A stretch of DNA of 63,184 nucleotides, filler included, from Collodictyon triciliatum (GCA_043381765.1; 8 parts of 8 records of this genome joined end to end with filler, not necessarily neighbours in it); one strand, 5' to 3'. Counted from the whole stretch's first letter, positions 14,701-55,611 are shown. The notes: generated by a model from the sequence alone, not told the origin. Numbers and translations: made by a program.

Positions 14701-17100
14701 ATGGCTCGCTTCTCAAAGTCTCTCCTGGCTGCATGCCTCATCCTCGTGGCTGTTTCTCTGGCCGCCGCACTGCCCACCAGGTAGACTCTTACTTTCTCCC
14801 TGTCTTTCTTTCAGCCGCTCTTTGTATTCTTTTTTCTTCTCCTACTACTTTGTGTGCCCCATTTTTGACATTGAATTTTTTTTTCTCTCCATTCTTTCTG
14901 TACATAGAGAGCGCGCCTGTCCCACAAATCCGCGTGGGCCTGGAAAATACACTGCCACCATCCGCTTCGATGGAGGAAACAGGTAGCCGGTTTATTCTGG
15001 ACATTAATTAAGACTCTTAGCTGTATTTTCGTCTCTTATGATGCAGCGTAATTGTAACAAATCTTGATATTTACAATCAACTCACTCAACAAAAAATGAA
15101 GGAGAGAATAATGGCTCAGTTACTTTCTGGAATAGGGACTACATCCTCTATGTGCCCTCCACCTACCCAGGCTTCCATAGCCGTGGAACCCCTGTTCCTC
15201 TTTTCTTTGTGGTATTGCCTCTCTTTTACACAAGCTTTAAAGTCAATAAAACCATGGTTGTGGGCTCTGCTCCTATCATGCTGGTACTGCCCACAGAATC
15301 TCACTGTCCGAACAATGCCCTGTAGCTTCATGGCTTCAGCAACTCCATTGAAGAGACCTATGTCAACATGGGAGTTCAGAAAGTTACTGAGGAGAACAAC
15401 GGTACAATTGCTGTCGTTCCAGCTGGCCACCTTGCCTCATGGAACGGAGGAGCATGCTGCCCCCCTGCGGTTTGTGAAAGAATTACAAAACTTCTAATTG
15501 TATATTTTTTAAAGAAAAACGCACGGCCTGGCACCTCTACATCAATTTATAAGCTAGTCGTATAACTCGAGGGTTCTATTCCAAATGACACAGACATTCC
15601 TCAACAAAAATGATGTTGGCTTCATCCGCGAGCTGGCCAGAATTGTTGCTGCTGAGTTTTGCATTGACGCTGGGCGCATTTTTGCCGGTGGGTATTCCAA
15701 CGGTGGGTTCATGTCCCATCGCCTTGGCTGCCAGGCTTCTGACCTCGTACGTACTTTCATGCGAAACTGTTAAATGAAAATTCTATTTCATTTTTAAAAT
15801 ATAAGGGAGAGAGAACTACCACACATACAACATTCTCCATTTGAATATGAAGTATATGTCAGCAATGTTATATAAGAGTAGGATGGTTGAGTGTAACATT
15901 TTTTTTCCTTTATTCGATTCAAAGATGGTTGGGTGTAACATAAAGATTAATCTCTGAAAAATAACAGATTAGTGGCATCGGCCCTGTTGCTGGCCACCTC
16001 TCTGACGAGTCTGAGTTCCCATGCCGCCCCGTCAAGCAGATGCCTGTTGTGGTATGTACTCGAGTTCTTCATTTGTAAATCATGAAAATTGTTGGAACGC
16101 AACAGTACTTATCTGAAAGCCATTCACCGGAGATACGGCTGCTGTACTTTTTAATCCACCGATGCAATCTCAAAATCTAATAACTACTATTTCCTTTTTT
16201 TTTTTTTAAAAAAAAACAAAACAAAACAAACTAATAGCACTTCCATGGAACTGACGACCGCACCATTACCTACGACAAAGCTCCTGCTTCCTGGAAGCGC
16301 TGGGCCTCAATCAACACCGCCACCAATGGACCAAGAGTAAGCAATCACACAATTGGTCTAATGCTGATTATTGCCCGGTCTTCTCTGACACCATTCTATT
16401 CTCACTAGTTATTTTTTCCTATTGAATGATTTCAATAGTCACATACTCCCACGGGTTAATTCTGAATATCTGTTGATGCAAGTACACTTTTTGTTGCCCT
16501 AGGTCACTTATCAAAAGGGAACCGCAAAGTGCGAATCATACACTTCAAGTGGCTTTGGAGAGTCCACCCTTTGCACCATCCAAGGAGGCCCCCACGCATG
16601 GCCCGTATGTGTTGTTTGAGCTATTTTACATTTTTTTTCATTTTCTCTTCCTTTTTTCTTTTATCGAAGAAAGTTTGTGACGCCTATATTATTATTATTT
16701 GCTTGCGCCTATTCTTGACAGCAGCGTACTAAGGGCACCTTTTTTTAAATATCCAACGAATCAGGGATGCTCTTACTACGGAAGCGGTAAGCCTGGAAGT
16801 GGATCCGGATGCAATGGTGCTACACCTGACATCTACGCCACCGAGTACATGTGGTAAGAGTACATATTATCATCTTGTCAAGCTCTATGCGTTTGTACCA
16901 TCACACTTCTAACATGATGACCATATATCTTGTTTTTTCTTCTCCTGCAACAAAGGCGCTACTTCATGAGCCACTCAAAATCTGCTGGAATCCTGTCCCC
17001 TGAAGACCCACAAGTCCAGTTCAACCCCGATGATATCATCGAATCAGCTCTGGCCAATCGACTCTTCAATGAGTATCCTGTCTTCCTCGGAGATGAATAA
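14701..17100 (+). CDS. Secreted alpha/beta hydrolase of the LpqC / PHB-depolymerase / feruloyl-esterase type, multi-exon
   Basis: Signal peptide MARFSKSLLAACLILVAVSLAAALP; RDYILYVP; PLFFV|LHG; WNGGACCPPA; DVGFI; GYSNGGFMSHRLGC nucleophile elbow; HFHGTDD; GGPHAWP. Confidence 0.85.
15882..15941 (-). mobile_element. Micro-retroposon, family A: 24-nt insert with 18-bp TSD
   Basis: GATGGTTGAGTGTAACAT [TTTTTTTCCTTTATTCGATTCAAA] GATGGTTGGGTGTAACAT (17/18); in an esterase intron, antisense. Confidence 0.85.
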
Positions 17101-17678
17101 AGTCGCAGTAGAGTTAACAGAAAAAGGAAAGAAAAAGAAGAAGCATTCCTCCGCACATACCTGCCATATCTACACCGTGATTCTTTCATCTCTTTTTGAT
17201 TTGTTGAGCGAACCAGCAAGCCCACTTCCCATACGCCACATGTTGGTGTGACGACTCCCATGCGGGGCGTGCGAAACTCTCCTTGTGGCTGTTGGACTCT
17301 GTCCATTTCCCGGCCGAATGAATGGAAGAATGGAAGAATGATTGAATGAATCTCGTCCAATTTGCCCGGCCACATTCAATCGCAAGGAAATCACAAGCGG
17401 GACGCAAGAAGAGAGATGGAGCATTGAGAGAATTGGAAGGAGCGGAGCGTTTACTCGCTGTGTGGAGAATATCCAGAGGGCGAGAAAGGAACAAGTTCTG
17501 TGCAATGGTCGACGAAGGGAAGCTTAATGTGAAAGGGCATGATATGAATGCGTCGGGCTATTAAGGAATAGTTGAAAGGAAGAAAAAGAAAAGAAAAGAA
17601 GTCGATGGTTTAAGGGAGTGACTTTAGCCTTTTTAACAAAAGGAACAGACTAACCGGGCGAAGGCAGATCATAGGAGG

Positions 17679-17785
17679 ATGGGCGACGATCCGGTAGGGA
17701 AGGAAACAAGTGTCGACCTCACTGCCCCAGCAAGAGTTGGGCGTGACTTACAACTCTACAAGGATGGAGTGCGGCAAGCTGCTGG
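17679..17785 (+). CDS. First exon of a DIPP/DDP1-type Nudix hydrolase (remainder lost at scaffold end)
   Basis: MGDDPVGKETSVDLTAPARVGRDLQLYKDGVRQAAG|gtaagt matches the ARxGRxxQxY...GxRxxAG N-terminal motif of DIPP-family Nudix enzymes. Confidence 0.65.
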
Positions 17786-18086
17786 GTAAGTTATGCAAAC
17801 ACTCCTAGAGTTATCGAGTCAGCCCATATATATATAAAAGACAAGAAGCAATTATAAAGTGAGACAAAAAGCAAAAGTAAAAAGATTGGATGCCGTTTTT
17901 CATTCAATTCAGAATATTTATTATAATTCTTATTATTTTATCTTTATTTTATATCTCTATGNNNNNNNNNNNNNNNNNNNNNNNNNNNNNNNNNNNNNNN
18001 NNNNNTTAATTAATTAANNNNNNNNNNNNNNNNNNNNNNNNNNNNNNNNNNNNNNNNNNNNTATTCAAGAGTTAAACCGCAACACC

Positions 18087-18190
18087 CTCACTCACTCACT
18101 CACTCACTCACTCACTCACTCACTCACTCACTCACTCACTCACTCACTCACTCACTCACTCACTCACTCACTCACTCACTCACTCACTCA
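18087..18190. repeat. (CTCA)n microsatellite
   Basis: Direct inspection. Confidence 0.95.
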
Positions 18191-18734
18191 CATCACTGTG
18201 CACACCCACATAACCTATTTCTCTTATCCTCAAGTATTCGAGGATTACCTATGTGATTCGTTGTTTCCATCGACATATTTACAATATCTTGAATTTTGTC
18301 ACCTGTTGCTAGATTTATTGCTTCTTTTTCCTTTCAAAAAATAATGTTTAGTATGCAGATATTTTCTCAGATAATATTCATTTAAAAAATTTTATTACAT
18401 TGAATATTACTAACTTGAACTCGCTTTTTCTGTGGCTCCTTAAATTTTTATATTCACCTCTTGTTTATATTATCCCCGTTGACCTGACGATGAATTTTTT
18501 ATATCGCATTTGGCGCCTCGTGTGGGGATAATCGGTTGCGTCATTTACTTATTTATGACTCTTTGACATACATTGATATCATTCTTATTCCCAAACTGTA
18601 TCTTGGTCACAAATGATTCAATGCTCATCCATACGGGGAAAATACCAACTATATAACGTGATTGCGTATTTTGACATAATTGTGTACCTACTAAATTCGT
18701 TCCATTTTTTAAATTAAAAAATAAACAACTTCAG

Positions 18735-19318
18735 TGAAAGTAGAGGATCCTTTATTAAATAGGGCAAAGCCACCCCCGAGTCAGGTTACTAATACGACTT
18801 CACCTTTGGATAATGTATTTGTGGACCAAAAGAAAGGTGATTCAGCTTCGTCTGTTCGTCCAGTCATTATTCCCATTCTTTCAAAGAGGGAGGCATCTGG
18901 GAACATAGAAAAGGTCAAAAAGAGTGTCCGTTTTTCTGAAGAAAATGAAATAAGGTATATCGAAGCAAGATCGTCGGATACCATAGGCCTCGTGGATTAT
19001 GGAGACGATGATGAAGAGGATTGCGATGGTGAAGACGGCAAATCTGATCCAGACCAGAAGACAACTGGCGTTTTGGGTAAGACCACCTTATCAATGACCG
19101 GTCAGAAATCAAAACAAGGGGACTCTTATCTTGTGAAAGGGCGCCCTGGGGCAGAAACCCCTACGGAATCTGAGTCATCTACCCGGGGAGGAAAAGCAAT
19201 GGCATTCGGTCTCCTGTCCCATTCAAAGCGGTCAGGTGAAGAGGATGAAGAAGATGAATCGGCTCCCCCGAAGAAGAAGTCAACTCCCCGGCCTTTCTGG
19301 GCTGCACCAGATGAATGA
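18735..19318 (+). CDS. Terminal exon of an unknown protein with a disordered acidic/basic tail
   Basis: CAG acceptor at 18732-18734, then ~194 open codons containing KKSVRF (RVxF-like) and GLVDYGDDDEED; upstream exons absent. Confidence 0.55.
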
Positions 19319-20005
19319 TCCACATAGTTATCCTTGTCTGAACATTATTCAAATCGCTGCTTTGAATGGTGGAAAATACCTATTTCTTGCTCTTGGTTGG
19401 ATTTCACCCTTCCACCACAATTATGTTGTCTGTCATCTCTTTTCTGTTGCTATGCAGTTAGAAAAAGAGAGATAGAAATACCAATAAAGTGACGTTCGAA
19501 GGGAAAAGTGGGGCGATATGCGTTGAATTAAAAGCGTGCTCGTTTTTATCGTCGAAATTATTTATTTGTTGCTATTTGTTATTTTTAATCACCATCGTCA
19601 TAATTATGATTATCATCTATGTAGAAAAAAGGAAGAAGAATCAAAGTAGGCCATATATTCCGGGCAATTGCACCATCATTTATCTTCAATTTATTCACAT
19701 CCAGGGTGCCATCAACATTTAGACATTCTCAGGCACAAGGTCATCGGAGACTCGGTATTTTTTTCTTGACACCACACGAACTACGACGCCGCAGAAATGT
19801 CGCAACAGGCTTGGTTCTGGATTTATATCATCCAATTGGCTTAAACGCTTAAAATGAGAAAAGGACATTCAAGCGTGTTGATATATTCATCAATAATAGT
19901 TGCAAAATTAAATGAATGATCATCATACTTTTTTTTAAAAAAATTTTTAATTATTATGGTGTCTCCTCAAACCAAGATTAAGCTAATGTAAGAAAAGTAT
20001 AAACC

Positions 20006-21103
20006 TTATTCGTCATAGAGTGTCAACTTGGCCAAGTGCTTTGAGTCCGAACAGTATGAGTTCAGGTAGCAAGGTAGCTGGGTTATTCCACGGGGTGCCC
20101 TCTTCATCTTATCGAAATCACTCAAGTAAAAGTAGAGATATGATAATTCCTTCAAGTTTGTAATCCAAGGAGGCAGTTCGGAGATCTGTTTTTCAAAAGA
20201 ATTCCGGTATATGAATAAAAAAAAGTATTTCTTAAATGAATAATAATAATAAAAAAACTCCCTTAGAAATGGTGGATATATTGATGAAATGATATGATTT
20301 TTTCCCCGTTATTCAGTCCACTCCTGATATGATTTGATTATCAAGTTAGTTCCGAATAGTCGGTGTATTAGACTTACTGGATTCCCAGCCACTCCAAGGC
20401 ACATCAAATTTGTCATATTCGATATATTTGGTAATGAGCTTAAGTGGTTAAATGAAAGCTCAAACGTATATAGGTTCGACAAGTTGGATATCTCATCTGG
20501 TAGGAAATGAATCCTGTTATTGGATAGATTGAAGGAACGAAGGTGCGACAACGTTGATATCTGTCTCGGCAATCCAGTCAGGTGATTTTGATGTGGATCA
20601 AATCTATCTAGATTCGTCAAGTTGGAAATCCCCTTGGGGATAGAGCTGATTTTGTTGGAGTGGAGGAGAAAGTGCCGAAGATTCTTCAGAAACCCAATCC
20701 TTGCAGGCAGATTTTCTATCAAATTATGATCGATGCGAAGGTCTTCCAGTCTTGTCAACACTGATATCCCATTTGGCAAGTCGATTAAACTATTATTGTT
20801 TGCCCGTAGAGTGCTCATGTGTGTTAGAGCTGAGATTCCGTTAGGAATGACACTCAGCTCATTGTAATGCACGTACAAGACTCTGAGATTTCTTAGCAAG
20901 GATATAGAGTCTGGTAAGGATTTCAACATGTTTTTGTGAAGAAAGAGTATCTTTAGGTTCTTCAGCAACCCAATCGACTCGTTGAGGGTGCTCAACTTCT
21001 TCTCAGATAAGTCCAAGAACGAGCAGTCTTCAAATTTTTCTGTACATGACCCCCACGCTCCTCCAAGCCTTTCGATTTCTGCTAAATCGCCAGTCGTGCT
21101 CAT
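20006..21103 (-). CDS. Leucine-rich repeat protein (about 10 typical 23-aa LRRs)
   Basis: Repeated LxxLxxLxLxxNxLxxLP; intron 20377-20186 (GTAAGT..CAG) joins AGNP|ISELPPWITNL. The 3' end is uncertain. Confidence 0.85.
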
Positions 21104-22077
21104 TTGTACAGTATATGTCGTAGTTATGTATGGTCTGATAGATGCTTCTTCCTAAAGTTGATTTCAAGGTATATTAAAAGGTAAATAAGAGATTATTAGA
21201 ATGACATTCAATGGTATTTTTAAACTGGGAGTTGAGAGAGAGAGAGGGAAAAACTGGTTCGGTCGTGATAAATTCTCCAAATGTCCTTAGACTTTCATCT
21301 CTTCATATTACTGTTCGTTCCTATGAGCCGAATCTGCAATTTGCAAATGCTATCTGTTTGTATGCTCTGGTAATAACATTTAAAAACGCAGAGCAAGCGA
21401 AACCGGGAGACGAACCTCGCACGATTATATACAGGACATCTACAAGGAACAACACGCATCCCAACTCACCGCAACAAATGAAATGAATGTGGTAGGAGAA
21501 CGAAATGAATGAGTTTCGAGAATGAATATGAATGAATTCCGAGAATGAAAACCAGACGGATTACAAAACTTTTATACAATTATGGAAAATATAAGTATAT
21601 ATCTATATAACTTTAATTATATGTTTATTTTATATAATTAGCTAAAATTATACAAATTATATGACATTTAATGTTATAATTGAAATATCCAGATGACGCA
21701 ACTAAACCACACAGCCACACAGCCACAACTCAATCCAGAAATATAGCCGTTTGGCACTTTCCCCATCCCCAAGACCTCTTTGAACGCTTCAAAAGCCAGT
21801 CGTCCCCGAGATGAAGTCAGATCACAAAATCGCTCACAGGCAGATTTGACGCACAGCCGCCAAACAACCAAACACCCAACAAGGTCAAAAAAGATGAGAA
21901 GAGGCAAACGAGGACAACGAGGACAACGAGAGACTCTGCAAACGCCTGTGTACTTTTACACGGCAGCGCGTTCCGACTCCCTTTCTCAAGCAGGAAGGAA
22001 GAGCACCGCACGACACTAACGCGGGACACTTGCAGCAAACAGAGCGTCGAAAGGCAAACGAACAAAAGCAGCGGAAC

Positions 22078-24613
22078 ATGGGCAAAGGAGCAAACAAGAA
22101 GCCAACCACGGCAGCCGAGACCGTCTTCACGTGGGACGAAGTCAAGAAACACAACACCCGCCATGACGCGTGGCTTGTCATCCGCGACAGCGTCTACGAT
22201 CTCTCCGCCTGGCCCAATCACCCTGGTCTGTCTTCCCCACTCCCTTAACAACCACCCAAGATGCTCGGCAGTGGATGTCCGTGTATTGATACCTTTTATG
22301 GTATGCTCAAGCGGAGTCTGACTCCTTTTGCCTACGATCCACAGGGGGCGACGTGCTCTTCCGCCATGCCGGGCTCGACGCAACAGACGTCTTCTCTGCC
22401 TTTCATCCGTCCTCTGCCTCGACGGTCTTGGCCGACTTCCGCATCGGCACCGTGGAGAAGACCGAAAGGAATCTCAAGACAGAGCAGTTTCAAAAGGTTT
22501 CCTACTTTTCTTTTCTTTTTTCTTTTTTTATTTTCTTTCCCCTTGTCCGTATCACCTTTCCCTCCATTCGAGAAGCATGCGAGAAAGCGACTGTTAGAAG
22601 AAAGGAAAAAAAAAAAAAAAAAAGAGAACAGCCTCGAAGTAGAGGAGGAAGAAGAAGTAACGAGCAAAGCTGCGAAAGGGCCTTCTGGGTGTTCCTCATG
22701 AACCCTTGTGTATTCCTGCAGGAGTATCGCGAACTGCGCAACAAGTTCCGGCAGCTGGGCTACTTTGAGGCCAGCCATCTCTACTACACCTGGAAGGTCG
22801 GCAGTAACGTCCTGATTCTGACTGCTGCAGTTGCTTTGGTGGTCGTGTATCAGCGCTTCTGGACAAACATGCTTTCGGCGTTTCTGCTCGGCCTCTTCTG
22901 GCAGCAGTGCGGTTGGTTGGCGCACGACTTTCTGCATCACCAGGTGCTTCATCTCGAGTTGTTTCTCTTTCTAAACATTCATGCCTTGCAGGCTTCTTTC
23001 TTTCATTCTCTTTCATTCTCTTTCATTCTCTTTTTCATTCTCTTTTTCATTCTTTCTCTCTTAACCCTTGCATAATAAGGGTGAAAGATTCATTCGAAGT
23101 ATCTTTTCAACATAGAAAGCATATTATGAGTTGATTTTCTACTAGCCTCTGTTTTTTTTCTTTTCCTTCTATTGATTTTTGCTCTGTTCTGAATTCTGTT
23201 GGCCACTCGCAGGTCTTCAAGAACCACACCTACAACAACCTAATGGGAATCCTCGTCGGAAATATTTTCCAAGCATTCTCTGGTATGTGAATTATCCCCA
23301 GGATTTATCTTTCACTTAGTACAAAAATCACATCATTCAGCCTTTCAGCCCGTCCCTCCGCACCACCTCAATTATCAAGCGATGAAGAGAATCCAGCACA
23401 CCAAACACTTCCAGCCTCCTCCCCGCCCAATAGCCTATCTTTTTAGTTTATCACTAAACTTCCCTTTAGTCAACTGGTGGAAGACCAAACACAACACGCA
23501 TCACGCCTTCCCAAATGTGCTGGAGCAAGACCCTGACATCGACACTGTCCCGCTTCTTGCTTGGTCTCGGGTATAAACGCAGTTTCCCTATCATTTTAAT
23601 AATCAGTCATCATCATATTCCCATTTTCAAAGTCTTTGATACCATGACATCACACTGAATCTCATTAAATCAATACACTCTTTGTTTCTTCGCCATTCAA
23701 CCATCCCATATCATCATGTAATAGGAAATGGCCCTTCAAGGAATCAAAGAGTACAATTCGCCCTTCACTCGCTTCCTCCTCCGCGCCCAACCATATCTGT
23801 ACTTCCCCTTCCTTACATTCGCCCGCCTCAACTGGAGCTTCCAGAGCCTGCTGCATGTTCTCAAGACAATGCCCGAGAACGCGATTCTGGAACTCACCGG
23901 CCTCGCCGTCCACTGGGGACTTTACCTCTATCTGATGGGCCAGTATATGGACATCGTCACATCGATTCTCTACTTCGTCATAAGCCAGGTACTTATCACA
24001 TCTTGGATCGTGTTTGACTTACTCGAAACTACTTTCGCTCTTGACAATCTATTTAAACAACATGGTACCACTCACATGAACACACGAACTGTCATTTGAT
24101 GCGCAGGGTTCATGCGGTCTGATGCTTGCACTTGTCTTTTCTGTCGGACATAACGGAATGGCCGTATTCCCAGAGAAGACGATGGACTTTTGGACCATGC
24201 AAATCCTGGTAACCACATTCTTTCCCTTTCGTGCCACCTTGTTTGTATTGGATATGATAGTTGTCTTAGGCAGTAGATATGGGGCACGGCCGGGCCGACT
24301 TATGCTTATCGCCCCTCATATTTTTTTTTTGGTGGCTCTCTCTCTCTCATACATACACACATATTTATATGCTTGCCTGCAGAGCACTCGCGACATTACG
24401 GGAAACTCCTTCATCCACTGGTTCATGGGTGGACTGCAGTTCCAGGTCGAGCACCATCTGTTCCCAACCATGCCGCGCCACCATCTCTACAAGACCCACG
24501 ACGAAGTCCGTGCCCTTTGCGAGCGCCACGGAATCAAATTCTACGCAACTGACCTCTGGACCGGAACCGTCGAGGTTCTCGAGACACTCTACGAGGTCAG
24601 CAAGCTCATCTAG
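22078..24613 (+). CDS. Front-end fatty acid desaturase (cytochrome b5 fusion, delta-5/6/8 class), multi-exon
   Basis: Cytochrome b5 HP|GG; His boxes HDFLHH, HNTHH and QVEHH ([13 protein letters not shown]). Regiospecificity cannot be read from the sequence. Confidence 0.93.
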
Positions 24614-25051
24614 GCCTTGTCGGACAGCAGCTCTTCGCCACCGCGCCCAATAACAACACCACAACCAACCAGATTCAGCCTCGGACATATTCACAGCAAT
24701 CGTGAGGATTAATTAAATTCTGATGGACACCAAACGGCCGACATTGCCTTTGTGTGAGGAGCCGGGACTCTGTCAAATAACCCCTGAAGTCGACGCTCGG
24801 CTATCTATACGCTTGTCCTGCTTGGTGCACCTAGTCTTATCTTTTCTTTCTCCTTGTGATGGCACGTTTGGTTCTGTGTGTCCAGTGGGCGGGACGGAGC
24901 GGAGCAAACGCGTATGCAAGACATATACTTTTATGAAAGCTGAGCCGATGAAAGTGTCTATGGTATTGTGAGACAGAGAATATTAGCGGGGCGCGTGGGT
25001 TTGGGCGGAATGGGAGGGAAGACGGGCGACAAGTGATGAGATAGGCCAGAG

Positions 25052-26720
25052 TCAGGCGAAGAACGGAGAGTCAGGGCAGGCAGACACCAGGATTTGTGGG
25101 GCGGCAAATTGCGAGTCCTGCGCAAGGAGGCCGACGAGCGATGGAAGGTGGGCCGGGGACGCATGCCAGGAACTGAGTACGCGGGGGCTGGACGGGGCGG
25201 TTCGCGGGGATTCTGGCGGGGAGCTTTGGGCGGGGCGGGACCGGGCGATGGAGAGTCGACGGAAGCCCTCGTGGATGGTTGGTGCGACGCCTCGGCTGTC
25301 GAATCTGTCGGTGCGAGTAGTGTTGTTTTGCAGAGTGAGCAGCAGAGGCGGAGAGTAAGAGCGAAGCGATGGAAGAAGGAATGTGGGGAGAGGGGGTGAG
25401 AGAGGAGAGCCATTGTCAATAGAAGGGCTTACTCATCGTGGTCGTAGTTTTCGAGGATGTAGTTCAGTTGCTCGATGGATATGTCGGGGCAGACCTATGA
25501 AAGTAGGGGATGCATTTTAATGTGGAGAAAAAAAAAAAGGACATACTTCCTTAATTCAAATACATGTGATTTATGTATTTATATTTATTTATTTTTTAGA
25601 AAAAAAAACAACAGAACAAAGGCTGGATGTGATATGCACTGTGTACCTCCCGAAACGTGGGATTAGGCTCCTGCTTCTCGTTGAGAATAGTCTCTTTGGG
25701 GAGGGTGAGTGCATCCGCGATTTGACGGGNNNNNNNNNNNNNNNNNNNNNNNNNNNNNNNNNNNNNNNNNNNNNNNNNNNNNNNNNNNNNNNNNNNNNNN
25801 NNNNNNNNNNNNNNNNNNNNNNNNNNNNNNNNNNNNNNNNNNNNNNNNNNNNNNNNNNNNNNNNNNNNNNNNNNNNNNNNNNNNNNNNNNNNNNNNNNNN
25901 NNNNNNNNNNNNNNNNNNNNNNNNNNNNNNNNNNNNNNNNNNNNNNNNNNNNNNNNNNNNNNNNNNNNNNNNNNNNNNNNNNNNNNNNNNNNNNNNNNNN
26001 NNNNNNNNNNNNNNNNNNNNNNNNNNNNNNNNNNNNNNNNNNNNNNNNNNNNNNNNNNNNNNNNNNNNNNNNNNNNNNNNNNNNNNNNNNNNNNNNNNNN
26101 NNNNNNNNNNNNNNNNNNNNNNNNNNNNNNNNNNNNNNNNNNNNNNNNNNNNNNNNNNNNNNNNNNNNNNNNNNNNNNNNNNNNNNNNNNNNNNNNNNNN
26201 NNNNNNNNNNNNNNNNNNNNNNNNNNNNNNNNNNNNNNNNNNNNNNNNNNNNNNNNNNNNNNNNNNNCGATTAACGGACTAGGTTCTATCTGCATTTGGA
26301 GGGTATTGTGAGCTACCAGGAATAACTGGCATTCAAAGTGAACAAAAATGAATGAAACAGACGACTCTTGTGAGAACAATTGTAAATATTACTCTGTGTT
26401 CGTAGCGTAACACTGTTCTACAATGGGGTTCTATACATAACTTAATAAACCTATTGTGATAAGTTATTCGGTTCATAATATACCTGGTCAGATTCCTTGT
26501 CTGGATTCAGTTGTGAACCAAGCTCGAATTCATCGGGGAGGTGGTCTTCCTTTACATCAAGAGCCTCGCAAAGAGCTGCAGACTCTGTTACAGACCTTTC
26601 ACTTTCAGCTTTAGTCGTATCTGTTGAATCGATAGATGGAAGTGGAGTGCGATGAGGTCTTTGTATTGTAAGCGAATGGTTCAACGAAGCCATCTTTGGA
26701 GATAAACCATGACCTAGTTC
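25052..26720 (-). CDS. C-terminal part of a DIL (Dilute) domain protein; exons above the 25730-26267 gap are tentative
   Basis: Spliced RQIADALTLPKETILNEKQEPNPTFRE|VCPDISIEQLNYILENYDHDE|FDSRGV...PFFA* resembles the DIL C-terminal consensus (RQ..d.L.lpK...CP.Ls..Ql..lL..y.pDEF). Confidence 0.6.
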
Positions 26721-26891
26721 TGCATTACATCAAGGTTACAGATGATGAATAGACACGAAATGTTTTTTTTTCTTAGTTCATTTCAAAAACGACAAAAAAT
26801 CTTGGTTGGATAAAAATTCATTCTGGACTACTTATCGGGCATTTCATTTTTTTCAGGAGGGTAAGTATTTGTCATCGAGCCCCCTTTCCCA

Positions 26892-26989
26892 AAAGAAAAA
26901 AAGAAAAAAAGAAAAAAAGAAAAAAAGAAAAAAGAAAAAAAGAAAAAAAGAAAAAAAGAAAAAAAGAAAAAAAGAAAAAAAGAAAAAAA
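26892..26989. repeat. A-rich (AAAAAAAG)n simple repeat at contig end
   Basis: Direct inspection. Confidence 0.9.
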
Positions 26990-27089
26990 NNNNNNNNNNN
27001 NNNNNNNNNNNNNNNNNNNNNNNNNNNNNNNNNTTAATTAATTAANNNNNNNNNNNNNNNNNNNNNNNNNNNNNNNNNNNNNNNNNNNN

Positions 27090-27205
27090 TATTATGATTA
27101 TTATTATGATTATTATTATGATTATTATTATGATTATTATTATGATTATTATTATGATTATTATTATGATTATTATTATTATGATTATGATTATGATTAT
27201 GATTA
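27090..27205. repeat. (ATT/ATG)n compound microsatellite
   Basis: Direct inspection. Confidence 0.9.
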
Positions 27206-27229
27206 TCGTGTCATTGAATTTCGTCTCAC

Positions 27230-27975
27230 CTTACGACGCTCATATACAACATCCTTGAATCCAAACTCATCTCTCAAGTATATCATTCCTTGGTCAAACA
27301 TGTCTGTTGTTGTAATCCAGTCAAATTCCTTAGCCCTTGCCATGGCTGTCTATGAAATGGTCATTTGTGTGTTTTATTCTAGCGTATTTGAGAAATTAGA
27401 TATTTGTCACATGATTTGTGGGCAATAACGAAACTGGAAGAACTTATATGAAATGAACATATTATTACTTCAGGGGATTGGATTCGAATGAAGCGGCATT
27501 GGGGGTTGCTGGAATTAGTTCTTTTTAGATTCATCAGCCATTTCCAAAAAGGAGGGGCGCGTCCTTTGTGTTTCAAATCCCCCCGAATGTCGTAGAAATA
27601 TGACGAAATATGATGGTCTAATGGCTCTCGCACTATCGTAAAAAACCTATATTTATTACCTAGGTGCTGTGGTCAAATAATCAACAAATAATCAAAGACA
27701 TATGAATGATAACAATAATGTAAAAATTGCCCACAAAATCGAACGATGTGACGATTTTTTCAGATATAGTGTTAAATTCAATAAATTGGGACAACAGTAG
27801 GACCTATGCTTACTTTTTTTAAGCGATGATACTGATAATGACCGAATATGATGTCATATTTTCTAATTTTTTCAAATCCATCTTCTTCTTTGATAAACAC
27901 AGATTCCTGGTAATGTGGACATACTTTTAGCTCTGGGTGTTGCTCCTGTTAAATTAAACAGGAAAACAGTTGCAA

Positions 27976-28034
<59 letters not shown>

Positions 28035-28775
28035 GTGTGCATTAGTATTCAGATTCGCCCAATAAATAGAGAATAAAATTTTGCATGAGATTATATTGTC
28101 TATCGTCATCATTTCCATGTCGGCTGTGATTGACGAAAGTATAAAAGTGACCTTATTAATTTATGCTTTTTGTTTGTTTGTTTGTTTGTTTGTTTGTTTG
28201 TTTGTTTGTTTGTTTGTTTGTTTGTTTGTTTGTTTGTTTGTTTGTTTGTTTGTTTGTTTGTTTGTTTGTTTATGGCCTTTCTTTTCTTTTCTCACATTAT
28301 GAAAGGAATAGTGAAACCTTTATTATTATATTTTTTTATTATTATTTTTGTCTATTATGTCCCAGATTTGCATGAAAAAGGGAGGGTATATACCCCAAAC
28401 TTCAGCAGCACATGCCGCAGAGTTGTTCCGGCTGTTTTGGGTATGTGCACAAAAACTGTTCGGAGTCCTTTTCTTGATCTGACTGGTGGATATAGAGACA
28501 GACAATAAGCAAGGCAAAATACAAGCCGAATATTCCAGTAGGTCATTATCCGAAAGCTGAGAGGTACGCATGATACTAATAGGGGTAGGTGCTTCGTTAT
28601 CAACTACATTGGGATCTCACGAACCATTACCTTTGTCGGGCTCTCCATACTCTGGCCGCCCAATAACCTCCGATCCTGGTGTTTCCATGATCACAGATAT
28701 GTGATAAATTGTAATCATAAGAAAGAAAACTGAAAAGGCTAAGAGTCCCGAGAAGATTGGCATAGGCTTGGACAT
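27230..28775 (-). CDS. Golgi-type (type II membrane) sulfotransferase, 3' end missing
   Basis: N-terminal TM segment (MSKPMPIFSGLLAFSVFFLMITIY); 5'-PSB motif VFVHIPKTAGTT; 3'-PB motif FFTIVREPLDHHISSYFY. Confidence 0.8.
27976..28033. repeat. (AAT)n intronic microsatellite
   Basis: Direct inspection. Confidence 0.95.
28169..28271. repeat. (TTTG)n intronic microsatellite
   Basis: Direct inspection. Confidence 0.95.
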
Positions 28776-30437
28776 CCTATTCCTCTTAATCGTTCTGTGT
28801 GCCGGTCTCCTATTCCAAAACAGCCATTTTTAAAGCAGGCGTGACGAAAACATCTAGCCCTGATCTTTCTTCTTGGAGGCTTTATATGAAGAGAGAGACT
28901 GAACAGCCAGGAGTTATGGCCAGCAAAGAATAGTCTTTCACTCCCATATGTCTTGCTCCCATCCTTCTTTTTTATTTTCTCTTTTAACCCCTGCTCCTTT
29001 TATTTTTGTTTTCTGTTGTTGTTTTTTCTTGTTTCCTTTGGTGGTGGTTCGGGTTCTGTTGCGTGCCAACACCAACCAAATGCGAAATGAGGAAAACTAA
29101 ATGCGGAATATATCATTTATATAGTCATAATATATTAATACTGCATAATTAATCATCAATAAAAATTATTATTAGATATTAGTATTAATACTGCTAATAA
29201 AAATGTGAAGCTGGCTTCCTCCAAATATGCTACCCAATCTGCACATCTGTCGATTGCGACACGAGAAGCCAGGATTAAGAGCACCACTTCTTTTTCGATG
29301 TTATACAATATATTAAAGGTAAATATTAATTAATAAGAAATGCATAACTCTTCAATGTGGTAATTATACAATTGAATCATCATATCCAGATTTGATTATT
29401 TAACATTTGAGGATTCCCAATAGCCCATCGCCTCGCACATAACCACACACAAACAATTTCTACTTTTGACCTTTTTCCACGTATTCTCGAAGATTTCTCG
29501 TCTTTGACCACAAAAATAATTACCGTGGATCCTGAGATATAATCTACAAGTGCTCATCGCTCTTCTCGGTCACTTCATCATAAAGTTGCCCCGTCCGACT
29601 GAGCTGCGCGTCAAGAAAGATACATAAAGCCCTCCAAGAAGCGCTGTGCTGGCAAATACAGCAGGGTTGCGTTCGAGAGGGGGCTGCCTCTCCCTTCAAT
29701 GAGCCATTCGCTTCTTCAACGAACTACCTCAGAGTTTTCTACTTGAGACAAGCCCGCGATCCACGAGAGAAGAATGCATGAGGCTAACTTGCTCTGCGAG
29801 CCAAGCACCTTAAGCTGAATACCTATTCGGCTTTTTCCTTTCATGACTGTAGAGACTTCCAATATGCTATCCCGCTCCACTAGTGCCTTGTCGTTCTTGT
29901 TGTTCAATACCTCTTCCCACTTTTCCCTGTATTTTTGTAACGAGTGAAGGGGTGCTGAATACTGGTTCTTTTCTGTCCCCTACAGATCGCCAAGTTGTGC
30001 CGCTCGGACAAACTACCTCGAGGTCCTTTGCAGCAAATCCGATAACCAACACATCGGAAGGAGAAGTAGCCCAAGAAATTATATGCTGATTTCGAAATTG
30101 GCGTCGTTCAAAGTCAAACCCACAGCCCAGCATCGTCACTCTGAATACAAAACCCGCCAAAAGCCTTTACCCTCCTGACTACCCTAAAACATTCTTGGAA
30201 TATAACTGCTCCAAAGTTGCCGAGTACAACTTACCGTACAAATCGTAAGTGACGCTGAAAACACCCCGTCTCATCCTGCTTTCTCCGTATCATCACCGTT
30301 AATCATGCACTGCCTATACGGCGACTGGAAGTGGTGTTCCCATTCTTAACAAGTTTGAATCTACCTTCCCTAGGAGACTCTAAGACAAAAAATTTCAAGA
30401 GGAAAGCGAAGCCCTAAACAAACTCACTTCACGGAAA

Positions 30438-32184: not shown

Positions 32185-32794
32185 AACCACACTTGGCCCA
32201 CGCGCACCCGAGCATCCAACTCGAGACACAGCACAACACCACACTAAACTCCCATTCCTCATGACCAAGTGTCCCAAGAATTAGTCGCTTTATGAGCCGC
32301 CGCCTTCGGACGGGTGTGGCTGTGGCTGCTGTGGCTGTGGCTGCTGCCTCTGTTGGCCTGCTGGCGCCTACAAGCAAAATGGGTTGGTTTGGTTCCCCGT
32401 GGGAATGAGTCAGTGAGTGACTCGGCGGGAAGGCCCACAAACCATCGACAACTGGGCCGACCCGACACGTGCCTGGGAGGTTCTTCGCGGCAACGCAGCA
32501 ACGGCAGCAGTCTGGGGGGTTTCTGGGGTGGCAGAGAGCGGGGTGAGGAAAACAGAAGGGATGTGCTCGGCGCCCAGTCGGCTGCACCCGCTTCTCTTGC
32601 ACTGCAACATGTATGTCTCATCTTCCGAACGAGCGGTCCTCGCACCAATGCATTACCCAGAAGCAGGCGCTCTCCCGTGGACCGCACTTCCCTGCCACGG
32701 CGGCCATGAGACGCGATTAGGTGTGTCTGAAAATACACATGGATGGTCGTGTCTGTGGGGGGAGAAGGGCGGAGTACGCCACAGGGCGGGAAAT

Positions 32795-36729: not shown

Positions 36730-36812
36730 ATGTTGTCTGGTATGGCTCATGGCATAACCTCGCTACACTTTGAATCGAATAAAGGATCAAAAAATGTTGT
36801 CTGGTATGGCTC
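36730..36812 (+). mobile_element. Micro-retroposon, family A, longest copy: 45-nt insert with perfect 19-bp TSD
   Basis: ATGTTGTCTGGTATGGCTC [ATGGCATAACCTCGCTACACTTTGAATCGAATAAAGGATCAAAAA] ATGTTGTCTGGTATGGCTC. Confidence 0.9.
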
Positions 36813-37038
36813 GATCAAAAGTCGATCATGCCCAAGGCAGGGCTCCTGCTTCCATGGAAACTTGGATGATACTTATTTTTCAGGGAAATGAAGTATCAAA
36901 GATAACACGTTGTACGTGAAGGAAAGCACAGCTGACTTTTTTTTTTTCCTGCCAATTTACTGAACATGATCCGTCATATCAAGGCCGCCTCGCTTATTTT
37001 TATTTTATATATTTAGATATATTTAATTATATTTAGAT

Positions 37039-39935
37039 ATGACGGTCTTGGGTAACTTCTCGCTTACAACGCCCTTAAAGAGCGCTTCCCTCCTAGTTTT
37101 CATGTTGGCTGGTTGTTGCTTTATGTCAGTTGTAAGTTTTATTCTGCATAACCACATGTATACTCATGTAATATAAGGACGAAATGAAACCTTGAACCGA
37201 CTTTGCCCAGTATTGGATGAATTGTAGCATGCGTGGCTATGCAAACATTTTTATGTTAACAATAATTTTTTGATTCAGATGTACATGGTGCAAATTATCG
37301 CTTTTTTTTTTTTTAACTGTGAGTAACCTAAAATACAAATCATATGGTTAAAGTGTGAATCCGTGCACAGAGCATACCCCCAAAAGATATGGGAGACTTT
37401 CGATATTTTGGCCAGTTTTGATGACTCTGTGGGGTAAGATACTGAAAAGAGATAATTATAAACATTCAATGAGACATCTAATATACTATTATTGTTATTA
37501 TACATTTTTGAGCTTTGTTCATCACCAACAGAGACGAGCAGATTGATTACAAAAAATATGGATTGATTGAAGGATCTTTTGACATAGTCGGATTTAAAGT
37601 GAGTTGTTATTTCGATAAACAGTAAGATATTTTATAGTCAAACACTTACTCTATTTTAAATGTATTTATTGGGAAACAATATACGCTGGTATAATTCCTG
37701 CTATAATTTCCCTAGGTCTACAATAGCCCAGATAATATCGTTTTCATATATGAAATGAATAATAGTCTGAATGCACAGAAGATATTACAAACTAGTGGAC
37801 TACAGCTTCAAATTTACATAGATGCGGATTTAATGTTTGATTGAAAATCATATACTTTAAAATTTTATCTCCAATAATATCAGCAAACAATATACTCAAT
37901 ATTTTTTAATGATGCAAAGTTATACATTATGGTTCAAAAAGTAGTCGTTCGTCGGTATTTTTTTCCTTTATTCGATTCAAAGACGCTCTTCGTTATTTTG
38001 AATTATTTTTACTCTTAGGTTTAAATCCGAAACAAGTCGGTCTTTATATGGCTCAAATTTTCAAATAAGTGATAAAATGTAATTTTCTGGATTAAATGTA
38101 AATCTAAAATACGTTATTGTATAATCAAACCACTTTTATACGCAGGGACTGGGAAATTGCTATCATCGGAGATGATTCAGGATTTCATGTAGAGATACCG
38201 AAGACGTCTTTACTTAACCATGAAGATGCGATATCAGAAATCCTAAAAACCACCGCGATTGGTTGCATTATTGAGGTAGTTTCCAATTTTTTTTTTTGCA
38301 AATTCCTCATATATAATTTATTTACTACAATTTATAATCGCAATAGATACTCGTACCAAAAATTTTGGTACAAAAACTGAAGGAAATTCAACCACCCGAT
38401 TCGTGGAGATATATTGTGGTTACTGGGCGACAAAATGAGGGAAAAATGATCACAACATGTGATAAGGTTATTCGATTATTTGGAGGTCTCTTCTATGGCG
38501 TTGGTTTCATATTCATGATGTATTTGGAAAGGATTTATTTGTAAAGCATATATTTGATTACCTCAAAAGGCCATAGATAATAAAGAAATATGGCACGCTG
38601 GTGTGATAGATTCTCTAGATTTCTACAACATATGCCAACCTAATGTAATTCATTGACATATTTTTTTACCTAGTTTTGATGTTAATGAAACATTTCTGCA
38701 ATATTTTTTAAACTAAAAATATTATACACATCACAGCTTATACAGACATGCCAAGAACAAACAACTATCCCATTCATTTCGAGGACTAAGCTGGCATATT
38801 TGCCCCTATATGAATCCTTTGATGCAATCGGCGATGAAATGTGGATTTACCCTACGAATATCGCTTTTAAAGAATGGGAAGATAAAAGAGGCCTATTCGA
38901 CCTTGTAACTTTTACTTCGTTTTTAAAATATTTTTTGAATATGCTTAAAACCTACGCTGGCTAGCGAACCAAAGCCAACATCTCCACCATCCTGCACAAA
39001 ATTGAAAGGAAGAATAAAAAAAATACTTAAAACATACGCGCCTTTCTTAACGATGTAGGTATATTTTCAAGTATCCACAGACTCTGTGTTCATTAGGTTC
39101 ACTTTTCAGATCAAAAATATGTATGCATCAGAGAAGAATGGTAAGGACTTCGTCCATATAGCGATGACTACTAATACTACTATTTGGTTGTGGAAATCCA
39201 TGCAAATCAATTTGAAAAATACCAGTTGATTACCACTCCAAAAATAATCAAGCAGAAGCAAAATCTATGAAATTGATACATTAAATTCAAGTGCACGGGT
39301 GTTTTTAACTTTTTTTCTTTTTTAAAGGATCACACCTGGTTTTACCGCAGGTGTACATAGATACAGACTCGTGCTTCGGTTGTGGAGAAGTCGATGGGCT
39401 TTTTAACTCAAATATACATTTTAACCCAATGCACGCATGGGAAATCTCTCTGAACTTTGATATTTCCAAAGGAATTGTCCATGTAAATGAGGAATACAAG
39501 ACTTTATTTTTGTAAATCGACATTTTATCCCTTCGCATCCCCTTTACATATGTCCATTTTATAATTTTACCTGTTTTTCTATGATTTGATCAGATAATTT
39601 TTGGAGAGACGAGTTATTCTTCCGGTGCAGTCGTTGTGCAAGAGGATTTCATTATAGGCTATGTGGCTATCGAAGAATTTTTCACAAAAAGTTTATTAGG
39701 TTATCTCGATTGGAATTACTCTGTTCTAATTGGCGCTACAAGTGGTTCGTAATATATAAATATAACAACATCTGCTACTCTCCTTTAGTAAAGTTTCTGC
39801 AGAGCTCTCTCATTCATCCTATTCGAATATTTCTCAAAAATTCTATTTTCGATAGATTCTCAAAATAATATTATTAGTATAAGTATTTTTTCCCTTTATT
39901 CGATTATTAGTGTAAGTATTAGTATTCGTACTAGT

Positions 39936-39973
<38 letters not shown>

Positions 39974-41382
39974 AGAAAGAGCTTGGCTATAATGATGAAA
40001 TTTTCCCTGATTTTTTTTAGGAGATTCTAATAATATGGATATTCGGTCGAAGCCGTCCGCTACGACTTTTGGGGGAGGCAGCGATGATGGACTATTGCCT
40101 AACATTATAGATGCTCTGATACCTCCAGGTCATACATAATTAAATCGACTTTGTTTTTCGAAATGGATGACTGATTTTATCCACTTATTTTTCTCAGGAA
40201 CCAGCCAAAATCACATATTTAGAGTATGTGTAGAGAACCCAGGGTCAATTTGTTACTCACCGATGGTGGGAAATAAGACAGATGTTTTGATGATCGACTT
40301 CATCTTTGAGGTGGTCGTCTATTCGTGAATTTTCATCCCTTTCCATTCTTTATAGTTTTATCTAAAAAGGGAGAAAGCGGGAAAAAGGCAAAGAGAAAAA
40401 ATAATTAAATAATAATTTTGAATGACATGAAGGATGATTACGATGATGAAATATGGATATATGACCTGGCATCTGGATATGCGCCTAAAGGTATTTTTTT
40501 TTTTTTTAATAATTCAATGATTCTTTTTCTCCCCTTTTTTTTCTAGCCAACATTTCCACCATCCTGCACAAAATTGAAACCAAGAATAAAAAAATTCAAT
40601 TTTTCTTCATAATTTAATAAAATTATATTGGATAAAAAATCGTGCTACATTTTTTTTTTATAAAAGGACTATTTGACTTGAGAATGATGTCTGTGCAGCA
40701 CACGACAGATAATATTTATATTGGGATTAAAATGAGCGGAATATCAAATATCATGCCTTCGAAAAATGACATTGGATCTTTGGGAGTTCAAATTTATATA
40801 GACAAAGACAGATTGATGAATTCAGGGTCAACGAAATCAATGTTTAACTCAAATTTCAGGATGAGCTCAAATTATGCATGGGATGCATTCATATTTGTCT
40901 CAGGGAATTCATCCATGTATTATACTTTTGCTGGTGGTCTCCCAAGACTTATTTACCAAGATTTTCCATTTCGTACATGCCAGTCTTCTTTCATTTTTTC
41001 TATTCCATTAAAACATGTCGGGTTACCGAAAAATATGTGGAATTTTGTGGTGGTCAGCGGGTTAACATCACCGTTTAATAAAAAAGTAAATGCATACCCT
41101 AGTTAACCAAAAACTAACAGAGAAATTTTGCACGAAAGATATAATAATAATTGATTCAATAAAGAACTTCGATGTGCCTGTATTTACATTTGGATATGTT
41201 TAGGACCAATTCGTACCTATACAAAGAGTTCCTGCAATTGTCACGCTCTCTGGTGCTCGTGCCAGCTCCGAATACTTTCCAAATATAGCTGATGTCCTAC
41301 TGCCTAAATCTGTGAACCAAACGCAGCTAGTTATGTCATACAAGCCAATCAGGTATAGTTTGATATATTTTATTACATGCTG

Positions 41383-41460
<78 letters not shown>

Positions 41461-54355: not shown

Positions 54356-54948
54356 ACATGAAACTAAAGGAAAAGAAACAAAAAACTAGACAGAAATGAA
54401 GAAAATCCATCCGTACTCACAAAAGAACATTTTTCACTTTTGTTCTATTTATTATCTTTATTCCTGCATACCTATTCTACTACCATACCTATTCTTCTGA
54501 GATCTTTCTTTTTATTTTGTTGTCACACATATTTATCAATCCTCTCATCACTCATGCCCACATTTCGCTCTCCCTTAATCCTTTTTTTAAATGTCTAGAT
54601 ATTGCATTATTTTTTTTTGCCATCTTTAAGGGAAGAATCTCAGTACTCTATCCATTCTCCTCTTCAGTGGTGGAAAACTGTATTAATACTAGGAAATTTA
54701 AAAGGTGTGATCAAGATGTTCTGATTTGCGGTTTTACTAAATAAAAAGCGTACTAATTTATTGTAAGGTTTTTTTTAAAACAAAGTTTATGAAATTTCAA
54801 GACAACCTCAAAATGCGTGTCGAACGGAAGAATTCATAGTCTTAACCAAATAACATCGCGTACTTCCATTTTATAATTTTGTTTCAATAACTTCAAATTG
54901 TGGTACCATTCACTACTATCTTTGAAAGGAGGCTACATTATCTAAAAT

Positions 54949-55000
54949 GTAAAAGCATTCAAATTTTCTTTATTCAATTAAAGTAAATGCAGTCAAATTT
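54949..55000 (-). mobile_element. Diverged family A micro-retroposon: 16-nt insert, 18-bp TSD
   Basis: GTAAAAGCATTCAAATTT [TCTTTATTCAATTAAA] GTAAATGCAGTCAAATTT (16/18). Confidence 0.65.
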
Positions 55001-55013
55001 AATCATATGGTTT

Positions 55014-55285
55014 AGATGTTCACCCTGAAGTTTTTCCCCTTTATTCTTTTCAAGGAAAGGGGGTTTAGGTTTTTTCAACAGTCCAACTAGGTTATTTGCG
55101 CCTTAGTTGAAACCTGTGACATGTGTCAGGTTGGTACGGAAACTAGATCCATGGCTCACCAAAATGCCACCCTCGAGGGTTGAGGATAATTACAACTATG
55201 AAGCTGCAACTACTAGTGACTCTGACCTGGATTCGATCCAAGGCCAAATTTCCCCAGGAAGCGAATGAGATGTTCACGTTAAAGT
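55014..55285 (-). mobile_element. SINE-like 236-bp insert (55032-55267) with 18-bp TSD
   Basis: AGATGTTCACCCTGAAGT / AGATGTTCACGTTAAAGT (15/18). On the minus strand, a tRNA T-arm/B-box-like CTTGG-ATCGAAT-CCAGG lies near the 5' end and the tail reads TTGAAAAGAATAAAGGGGAAAA. Confidence 0.6.
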
Positions 55286-55556
55286 AATAGACTTTGTCTT
55301 TTAATTTTGAGTTCGATGATGATTTTTTTTTAAAATTTAAAAGTTGCTCCGAAAATTTGCATTTTTAACTTTTAATTGAAGTATTTCAATGATTCATACA
55401 ATGGTTTTTATCTTAGTCTTTGTAACAATATCAGCAATATTATTCCAGATGATTGGATAAACTTTCTAAATGGATCACTTAAAATGAGTTCATGATTAGA
55501 GATTGGTCTTTGGTGTCAAAGAGAGGTTAATGATCAATGAAATTTAACTAACTATT

Positions 55557-55611
55557 AAATATTAGCATTCTGTATTGTGAATGAAATAAAGGAAAAATAT
55601 CGGCGTTTTAT
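55557..55611 (+). mobile_element. Old family A micro-retroposon candidate
   Basis: AAATATTAGCATTCTGT [ATTGTGAATGAAATAAAGGAA] AAATATCGGCGTTTTAT (12/17, all mismatches transitions). Confidence 0.4.

Follow-up and report, generated by a model that had tools for sequence, protein, structure and literature searches.

Poly(A)-tailed micro-insertions in Collodictyon triciliatum DNA as probable 3′-terminal fragments of an L1-like LINE, most with a shared 5′ end

We examined Family A, a family of very short, A-tailed insertions in a 63,184-nucleotide stretch of DNA from Collodictyon triciliatum (GCA_043381765.1; the whole stretch, in which eight scaffolds are joined end to end, is called the window below). 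The Family A copies very probably represent 3′ fragments of a long interspersed nuclear element (LINE), here named LINE-A, made by target-primed reverse transcription (TPRT). They are dead-on-arrival, extremely 5′-truncated TPRT products and not a separate element, and their parent, judged by its relatives, is probably an L1-like, poly(A)-tailed LINE. Insertion of 5′-truncated LINE copies is a well-known process; what is unusual here is the extreme shortness of the copies together with a truncation hotspot of a single nucleotide.

Family A insertions

We searched the window for GAATCGAATAAAGG with up to two mismatches and obtained seven matches, compared to a mean of 0.83 and a maximum of 4 in shuffled sequence; none of 100 shuffles reached 7. 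Two diverged copies came from a fuzzy search with the 18-mer plus an A-run, namely the one already listed at 54967 and a new one at 49502 to 49530. In total, we accepted seven Family A insertions, of the form (C)TTTGAATCGAATAAAGG-(A)n, on four scaffolds (Table 1). All counts for the window refer to approximately 61 kb of non-N sequence in a fragmented assembly, so that the Family A sample is these seven copies and the density is about one copy per 9 kb, as the initial annotation of this DNA had estimated. That annotation listed seven sites on four scaffolds. Six of the sites and all four scaffolds stand, the copy at 49502 is added, and the site at 55574/55579 is rejected as a copy because its flanking repeat was not significant (4,393 of 20,000 null sites equaled it). 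A second candidate, a two-mismatch match at 55031 to 55055, was rejected because a flanking repeat was absent. At 55579 to 55597, the Family-A-like word GAATGAAATAAAGG followed by A5 occurs without a target-site duplication (TSD), and an old copy of a second LINE has its 5′ end about 20 nt downstream; the word may be a coincidence or a decayed nested insertion.

Each accepted copy lies between direct repeats of 17 to 19 bp, as originally described, with identities of 14/18 to 19/19 when the repeats are parsed to maximum length, and all seven repeats differ in sequence. We compared their scores with those of 20,000 pseudo-insertions placed in a block-shuffled window, since an unshuffled null is inflated by the microsatellites of the window. 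Depending on the copy, 2 to 178 of the 20,000 null sites equaled the observed score, and each flanking repeat is thus rare in the null. Copy 2, with a TSD identity of 19/19, is probably the youngest.

Among the words that precede A-runs of at least 5 (n = 493), Family A was the sole non-coding family with more than two members. The corresponding cluster of seven comprised six accepted copies and the doubtful word at 55579; copy 54967, whose tail is shorter than 5, lies outside this sampling. Could an AT-rich word recur by chance beside A-runs, or could the family be an assembly artifact? The window is AT-rich and has many A-rich microsatellites, and a generic scan for a direct repeat plus an A-run returned 15 matches compared to 10 in a reversed-sequence control, meaning that this signature alone does not discriminate. 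We nevertheless regard chance and artifact as refuted, with next to no probability left to them, given the excess of motif matches over the shuffled expectation, the rarity of every accepted TSD in the null, and the presence of the same word at the terminus of a LINE in an independent contig.

Table 1. Positions, structure, and flanking repeats of LINE-A and LINE-B insertions in the window. Null sites are the pseudo-insertions, of 20,000, that scored as high as the observed flanking repeat.
Feature	Position	Strand	Structure	Remarks	TSD identity	Null sites
Family A copy 1	15882..15941	-	TSD 15924-15941; insert 15900-15923, (C)TTTGAATCGAATAAAGG + A-tail; TSD 15882-15899	exact 14-mer	17/18	6
Family A copy 2, longest micro-copy	36730..36812	+	TSD 36730-36748; insert 36749-36793; TSD 36794-36812	insert = 37 nt of LINE-A 3′ UTR + ATCAAAAA; 44/46 identity to L002 3′ end	19/19	2
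Family A copy 3	37944..37999	-	TSD 37982-37999; insert 37962-37981; TSD 37944-37961	exact 14-mer	14/18 (15/19 in an alternative parse)	62
Family A copy 4, shortest	39870..39920	-	TSD 39903-39920; insert 39888-39902, CGAATAAAGGG + A; TSD 39870-39887	14-mer with one mismatch; junction AAT common to TSD and element	17/18	7 (15/16 parse)
Family A copy 5	48421..48480	-	TSD 48464-48480; insert 48438-48463, CTTTGAATCGAATAAAGG + A8-9; TSD 48421-48437	exact 14-mer	16/17	7
Family A copy 6, new, diverged	49484..49548	+	TSD 49484-49501; insert 49502-49530, CTTTGAATTGAGCAAAGGAGG + A5 + TAA; TSD 49531-49548	weakest of the accepted copies	15/18	178
Family A copy 7, diverged	54949..55000	-	TSD 54983-55000; insert 54967-54982, TTTAATTGAATAAAGA; TSD 54949-54966	fuzzy-search match; A-tail runs into AAA opening the TSD	16/18	8
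LINE-A, longer 5′-truncated copy	1..118	-	ORF2 C-terminal region; starts near 118, runs off scaffold start	113/118 (96%) identical to L002 553-669; homology stops at 118		
LINE-A, internal fragment, 173 nt	13909..14081	-	about -267 to -95 from tail; without 3′ end or A-tail	165/173 (95%) identical to L002 223-395	none evident	
LINE-B, end of last scaffold	62645-63184	-	ORF2 C-terminus intact to stop	related to LINE-A		
LINE-B, older 5′-truncated copy	~55615-56040	+				
LINE-B micro-copy	38959-39023	+	~58 nt + A8		17/20	
LINE-B micro-copy	40543-40594	+	~48 nt + A7	18-nt filler before	13/15	
LINE-B micro-copy	51334-51353	+	~11 nt + A8		12/16, weak	

The parent element, LINE-A

We scanned metagenome contigs for the 17-mer followed by RAAA and obtained five loci, of which four were chance matches in unrelated sequence and one was real. 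The real match is L002, a contig of 1,157 nt. The viral-contig scan for the motif gave three chance matches and no parent, and the genome-contig scan gave no matches with two patterns. L002 reads ...GTATGGCATAACCTCGCTACACTTTGAATCGAATAAAGG-A10 and prolongs the 45-nt copy at 36749, continuing it into the C-terminus of a LINE open reading frame (ORF), ORF2; extension of this copy toward a parent, as the initial annotation proposed, was therefore successful. The contig carries ...ATGGCATAACCTCGCTACACTTTGAATCGAATAAAGG-A10, and the Family A word is the final 18 nt of the LINE-A 3′ untranslated region (UTR). At the terminus, ...GAATAAAGG-A10, the poly(A) tail is preceded by a polyadenylation signal. 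Upstream lie approximately 76 nt of 3′ UTR and then an open frame of approximately 330 codons that is interrupted by one frameshift, includes a CX2CX8HX4C motif, and matches zf-RVT (PF13966; E = 1.5e-7, 32.4 bits compared to a cut-off of 27.5).

Longer pieces of LINE-A are also present in the window (Table 1). The copy at 1 to 118 reaches the ORF2 C-terminal region and leaves the scaffold, and therefore at least about 540 nt of LINE-A were inserted there. The internal fragment at 13909 to 14081 may have been left by a deletion or captured during break repair. Family A had initially been described as a population of micro-retroposons in its own right. We find instead that its copies are 3′-terminal pieces of LINE-A, which is present in the same genome at approximately 95% identity, and that they carry nothing that would enable further copying.

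We searched for longer proteins with the L002 ORF and found none; a search for near relatives returned seven short metagenome proteins with uninformative names. P0001, a relative of 345 aa that is 62% identical to the L002 ORF, had no PDB match, and a search of viral contigs for related loci with P0001 alone found none. With P0001 as the query, an exhaustive search of the protein library yielded 16 matches at E ≤ 0.001, four of them full-length (E = 2e-12 to 2e-4 to P0001). Each of the four has Exo_endo_phos, RVT_1, and zf-RVT. One of the four, P0014, was compared with solved structures and matched human LINE-1 ORF2p (E = 3.4e-57) over the endonuclease and the reverse transcriptase (RT).

The shared 5′ end

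In the Family A copies at 15900, 37962, 48438, 49502, and 54967, five of the seven, the 5′ start is the same, C(-18) or T(-17), which confirms the common end noticed in the initial annotation. The C at -18 is attributable to either the TSD or the element in three of these five copies and is clearly the element's in 48438 and 49502; all five are compatible with a complementary DNA (cDNA) that ended opposite C(-18). The two exceptions are 39888, which is shorter (its body is CGAATAAAGG, with microhomology adding up to 3 nt), and 36749, which is longer (37 nt). If each of the 36 detectable positions (10 to 45) were equally likely as an end, the probability of finding at least five of seven at one position would be approximately 1e-5 (hand calculation).

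Considering all pieces of LINE-A in the window, the body lengths are 10 to 13 nt (39888), 17 to 18 nt (five copies), 37 nt (36749), and at least 540 nt (1 to 118), to which the tailless internal fragment is added; no copy of 19 to 36 nt occurs in the window. This census combined BLAST with L002, which would detect any piece above about 25 nt, the fuzzy search with the 18-mer, and a scan of the window for AAAGG plus A, which revealed no additional TSD-flanked shorter copies. A smooth continuum of lengths running down from a long parent had been named as the mark of ordinary 5′ truncation. The long parent does exist, but the lengths are not smooth.

Microhomology at the 5′ junctions, read by eye, amounts to 1, 0, 1, 3, 0, 0, and 1 nt in copies 1 to 7. 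It thus occurs at 4/7 junctions, which is not the "most" of the earlier description. In both 15900 and 48438, the TSD ends in ATC and a 3-nt match to GAATC in the element is available, yet the join is at C|TTTG (also read by eye). Because this microhomology went unused, the cDNA end appears to have been fixed at -18 already.

The first base of the TSD is A in 7/7 copies, and it is mostly preceded by T (the four preceding bases are CTTT, GTTG, ATTC, TACT, TTTT, AATG, and GATT, a sample too small for a nick consensus). Tails are 4 to 9 A long. Non-A bases occur at the start of the tail or inside it in three copies (ATC, an extra G, and AGG...TAA at 36786 to 36793, 39888 to 39897, and 49520 to 49530, respectively), and the other four tails are pure A; the non-A bases may reflect imprecise initiation or mixed tailing.

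A poly(A) tail, duplicated target sites of 17 to 19 bp, and independent sites of insertion are all present, as the TPRT reading in the initial annotation had it. The A-tail at the correct end, the uniform TSDs, the A that comes first in 7/7, and the T that mostly comes before it fit TPRT from nicks of the L1 type. We consider it highly improbable that LINE-A cDNA or RNA pieces were instead taken up independently of an endonuclease, as filler in the repair of random double-strand breaks. The internal fragment at 13909 to 14081, without tail or evident TSD, could be such a case, but all seven micro-copies have the A-tail at the correct end, and their very uniform TSDs, beginning with A after T-rich sequence, therefore point to staggered nicks and not to random breaks. 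Random double-strand breaks usually give deletions.

A second family, LINE-B

LINE-B, a second L1-like LINE at the end of the last scaffold, has a 3′ UTR of approximately 50 nt and the terminus ...AAAATTGAAAGGAAGAAT-A6. It is probably the "Family B" of the initial annotation. Three LINE-B micro-copies are present in addition to an older 5′-truncated copy (Table 1), and the 5′ ends of the micro-copies all differ. Between the TSD and the micro-copy at 40543 lies an 18-nt filler, TTTTCTCCCCTTTTTTTT, at 40525 to 40542, which may be an inverted tail, as in twin priming, or untemplated sequence. Considering both families together, 9 or 10 of the 14 LINE-A and LINE-B pieces in the window are shorter than 60 nt, the tenth being the copy at 51334 with its weak TSD. 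Because the LINE-B micro-copies are short and have differing ends, shortness is general to both LINEs and the -18 end is specific to LINE-A.

Origin of the shared end

In the mechanism that we propose, the LINE-A endonuclease would nick a T-rich|A site, the freed 3′ end would prime on the poly(A) tail, and the RT would copy just the last 10 to 37 nt of the 3′ UTR. The short cDNA would then be joined to the upstream DNA end created by a second nick 17 to 19 bp away, resulting in a TSD about as long as the insert. The template would be ordinary long LINE-A RNA, with a stall or dissociation favored after -18 and host end-joining capturing the cDNA end. Our analysis shows the insertions with their TSDs and tails, the parent LINE with its L1-like relatives, the census of lengths, and the common end. 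The steps of nicking, priming, and joining are taken from established L1 biology, and both the involvement of end-joining and the stall at -18 are inferred. If a very early passage to end-joining is general in this genome, the variable micro-copies of LINE-B would be explained as well. We give about even credence to this account, in which reverse transcription of a long LINE-A RNA would abort through near-immediate hand-over to end-joining combined with a preferred stall after -18. The variable ends of the LINE-B micro-copies favor such a general early abort with a family-specific stop. According to the available part of PMC2666801, 5′ truncation of LINEs depends in part on Ku70, Artemis, and LigIV, and Ku is proposed there to capture the cDNA end upon dissociation of the RT.

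Several observations weigh against this account. Among our folding, Rfam, and tRNA checks, none gave a convincing cause of a stall at -18. A 5-bp hairpin with -18 as its 5′ base can be drawn from the 18-mer, but the prediction for the 18-mer by itself is an unfolded strand, with a minimum free energy (MFE) of 0; the LINE-A 3′ UTR folds no better than its shuffles (z = -0.51), and a 4-bp stem at -36 to -21 is weak. A plain failure of processivity should yield decaying lengths and not five identical ends with a gap from 19 to 36 nt. The sample is small, with seven copies from 61 kb, and the assembly is fragmented; long repeat copies break such assemblies and so are under-counted; one scaffold ends in LINE-A and one in LINE-B. 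In addition, the APE endonuclease and the RT on which the mechanism would depend are seen in relatives of LINE-A, while LINE-A itself is known from its last ~330 codons.

More speculatively, position -18 lies 3 nt before the predicted stem at -36 to -21 and position -37 lies just past it, an arrangement that would fit pausing of the RT. We also considered two further candidates, both of which we set aside. A molecular ruler that fixes the total cDNA length is rejected, given that tails of A7, A8, and A9 share one body end and that the LINE-B micro-copies total approximately 20, 55, and 66 nt. In the CUUUG/UAAAG stem of the 18-mer, G.U becomes G-C or A-U in two diverged copies; we do not claim covariation, as these changes fit ordinary decay.

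The main rival account places the shortening before reverse transcription. LINE-A RNA would be cut or trimmed to 18 nt plus poly(A) by an endonuclease, by a small-RNA-guided slicer, or by 5′-to-3′ decay halted at a protein bound to the 3′ end, and the RT would run off the 5′ end of the remaining template. This account is possible, though we hold it to be doubtful. It would readily explain why 5/7 independent insertions have an identical terminal nucleotide and none measures 19 to 36 nt, and why the join, read by eye, is at the cDNA end and not at the best microhomology on offer. Likewise, pairing between the target end and a fixed G at the cDNA terminus would be expected to leave a C common to the TSD end and -18, as seen in three of the five shared-end copies. 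L002, however, contains no known ribozyme, tRNA-like, or processing signal (four Rfam matches fall far below the gathering scores, the best with E = 0.12, and there is no tRNA), the LINE-B micro-copies have no common end, and the 37-nt and at least 540-nt copies indicate that longer templates are used too. In a specific form of this account, to which we assign a similarly tentative status, processing would shorten LINE-A RNA, or trimming would proceed as far as the footprint of the element's own protein bound to it, and the stub of 18 nt plus poly(A) would stay a competent template for TPRT.

A constant 5′ end in 5/7 copies is also what a full-length unit would show, and a 3′ tail in common with a LINE is found in many short interspersed nuclear elements (SINEs). 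Family A might on these grounds be a separate non-autonomous element, in which an RNA of 18 nt plus an A-run is transcribed from a master locus, such as a LINE-A tail with an external promoter in front of it, and copied in trans by the LINE machinery. We consider this improbable. An internal promoter cannot fit into 18 nt, tRNA and Rfam families are absent from the window scans, TSDs flank 7/7 copies and none of them is master-like, the 37-nt copy runs on into LINE-A and not into another RNA, and the shorter copy at 39888 suggests that the unit is not fixed.

Comparison with known systems

The Family A copies resemble the 5′-truncated, dead-on-arrival copies of L1-clade LINEs such as human L1 in several respects. 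TSDs of L1 range from about 7 to 20 bp and its nick consensus is T-rich|A. The TSDs of Family A are inside this range, its putative nick sites are of the same T-rich|A form, its 5′ junctions have 0 to 3 nt of microhomology, and the poly(A) tail of LINE-A directly follows AATAAA. The parent has a C-terminal zinc knuckle, and its relatives have an APE endonuclease and an RT, one of them matching L1 ORF2p. The differences lie in length and ends: the modal Family A body is 18 nt, while the medians for human L1 insertions in the available part of PMC13009371 are 390 bp (somatic solo) and 1,277 bp (germline solo). One end point is common to 5/7 Family A copies, tails are only 4 to 9 A long, and pieces shorter than 60 nt make up 9 to 10 of the 14 LINE-A and LINE-B pieces. 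In the end-joining model developed with zebrafish ZfL2-2 in chicken DT40 cells, the RT briefly dissociates and Ku binds the cDNA end, similar to what we propose; the available part of that work (PMC2666801) shows a shift in length, without one preferred nucleotide or an abort that is almost immediate.

Like SINEs with LINE-derived tails, Family A copies are short, dispersed, and flanked by TSDs, and they have the 3′ end of a partner LINE and a recurrent 5′ end. Unlike SINEs, they lack a promoter-bearing head, measure 15 to 45 nt in total, include one copy that continues into the LINE, and cannot be transcribed as units. To our knowledge, 18 nt is far below the length of any SINE. A promoter head of the SINE type (tRNA-, 7SL-, or 5S-derived) was not found, with no tRNA or Rfam family at threshold in the window and L002. 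With regard to a discrete unit length, the -17/-18 end is common to 5/7 copies; of the other two, one falls short of it and one extends beyond it into the LINE-A 3′ UTR.

In stringent LINEs of the L2/CR1 type, the RT recognizes a 3′ stem-loop, copies are mostly short, and termini are short repeats and not poly(A). LINE-A is similar to them in its strong 5′ truncation and in an 18-mer from which a 5-bp stem and a 7-nt loop can be drawn, ending just before the tail. It differs from them in that it ends in poly(A), its stem is predicted to be unstable, and its protein relatives are L1-like. A stable 3′-terminal hairpin of the stringent-LINE kind was not found in Family A: the canonical 18-mer with A8 has an MFE of 0, and two diverged copies reach -2.6 and -1.2 kcal/mol. 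By title or abstract start, among the matches listed from the openly licensed literature and bioRxiv, we found no description of a LINE with a modal insert of about 18 nt or with a truncation hotspot of a single nucleotide, which is weak evidence of absence.

Significance

If the window is typical, LINE integration in this organism would, in most attempts, stop after approximately 25 nt of cDNA, and micro-insertions would outnumber recognizable LINE copies several-fold, with about one per 9 kb for one family. Such insertions are below the size that repeat annotation covers, and they would allow aborted retrotransposition, an event difficult to observe in other genomes, to be counted directly. 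The single preferred end also offers a defined sequence for asking what stops the RT of a LINE, whether an RNA end, a roadblock, or end-joining. Because each micro-copy plants AATAAA and an A-run, it is a potential premature polyadenylation site and a potential seed for A-rich microsatellites. If the template were instead an RNA stub, most integrations would write a "signature" of approximately 25 nt with an AATAAA signal, and the micro-insertions would be the fossil record of a mechanism, of the host or of the element, that disarms LINE RNA after the ribonucleoprotein has formed; thousands would be scattered across the genome, missed by repeat finders.

Other features of the window

The eight scaffolds occupy positions 1 to 8932, 9033 to 17961, 18062 to 26989, 27090 to 36017, 36118 to 45045, 45146 to 49992, 50093 to 54159, and 54260 to 63184, and the spacers between them read N44-TTAATTAATTAA-N44. 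The Pfam content is eukaryotic (WD40, many Ephrin_rec_like repeats, GAF, PDEase_I, and LRR), and Rfam and tRNA scans found no rRNA, tRNA, or other Rfam family at threshold in the window. Atlas neighbors of the PDE fragment and those of the LINE protein indicate differing eukaryotic groups. A search of sequencing runs listed three, all labeled as metagenomes and with shares of 0.09 or less; they provide no evidence of habitat, strain, or expression.

A-rich microsatellites occupy many scaffold ends (36118 to 36215, 8900 to 9420, 26900 to 26989, 35990 to 36017, 45146 to 45320, and 54260 to 54300). The (GGAAAAA)n array at 36118 to 36215 repeats the Family A body-tail junction AAAGGAAAAA, and some of the A-rich arrays may have grown from retroposon tails.

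At 20286 to 20339, on the minus strand, we observed a candidate micro-insertion of another family, AGGAGTGGACTGAATAACGGGG plus an A-run between 14-nt flanking repeats with two mismatches; it falls inside the false-positive range of the generic scan. The 19-mer AAGTTAAAACGGGAAAAAA occurs as an inverted pair at 5664 to 5682 (plus strand) and 6157 to 6175 (minus strand), about 480 nt apart; the second copy adjoins a (CAAA)n array, and no TSD is evident.

Finally, a nearly unbroken ORF of approximately 5.7 kb extends over 56813 to 62549 on the plus strand in two overlapping frames (840 and 1,147 aa). The frame change near 59106 to 59335 may be a frameshift or an assembly error. The product has WD40 repeats and, after them, more than 20 Ephrin_rec_like repeats with a period of approximately 280 nt.

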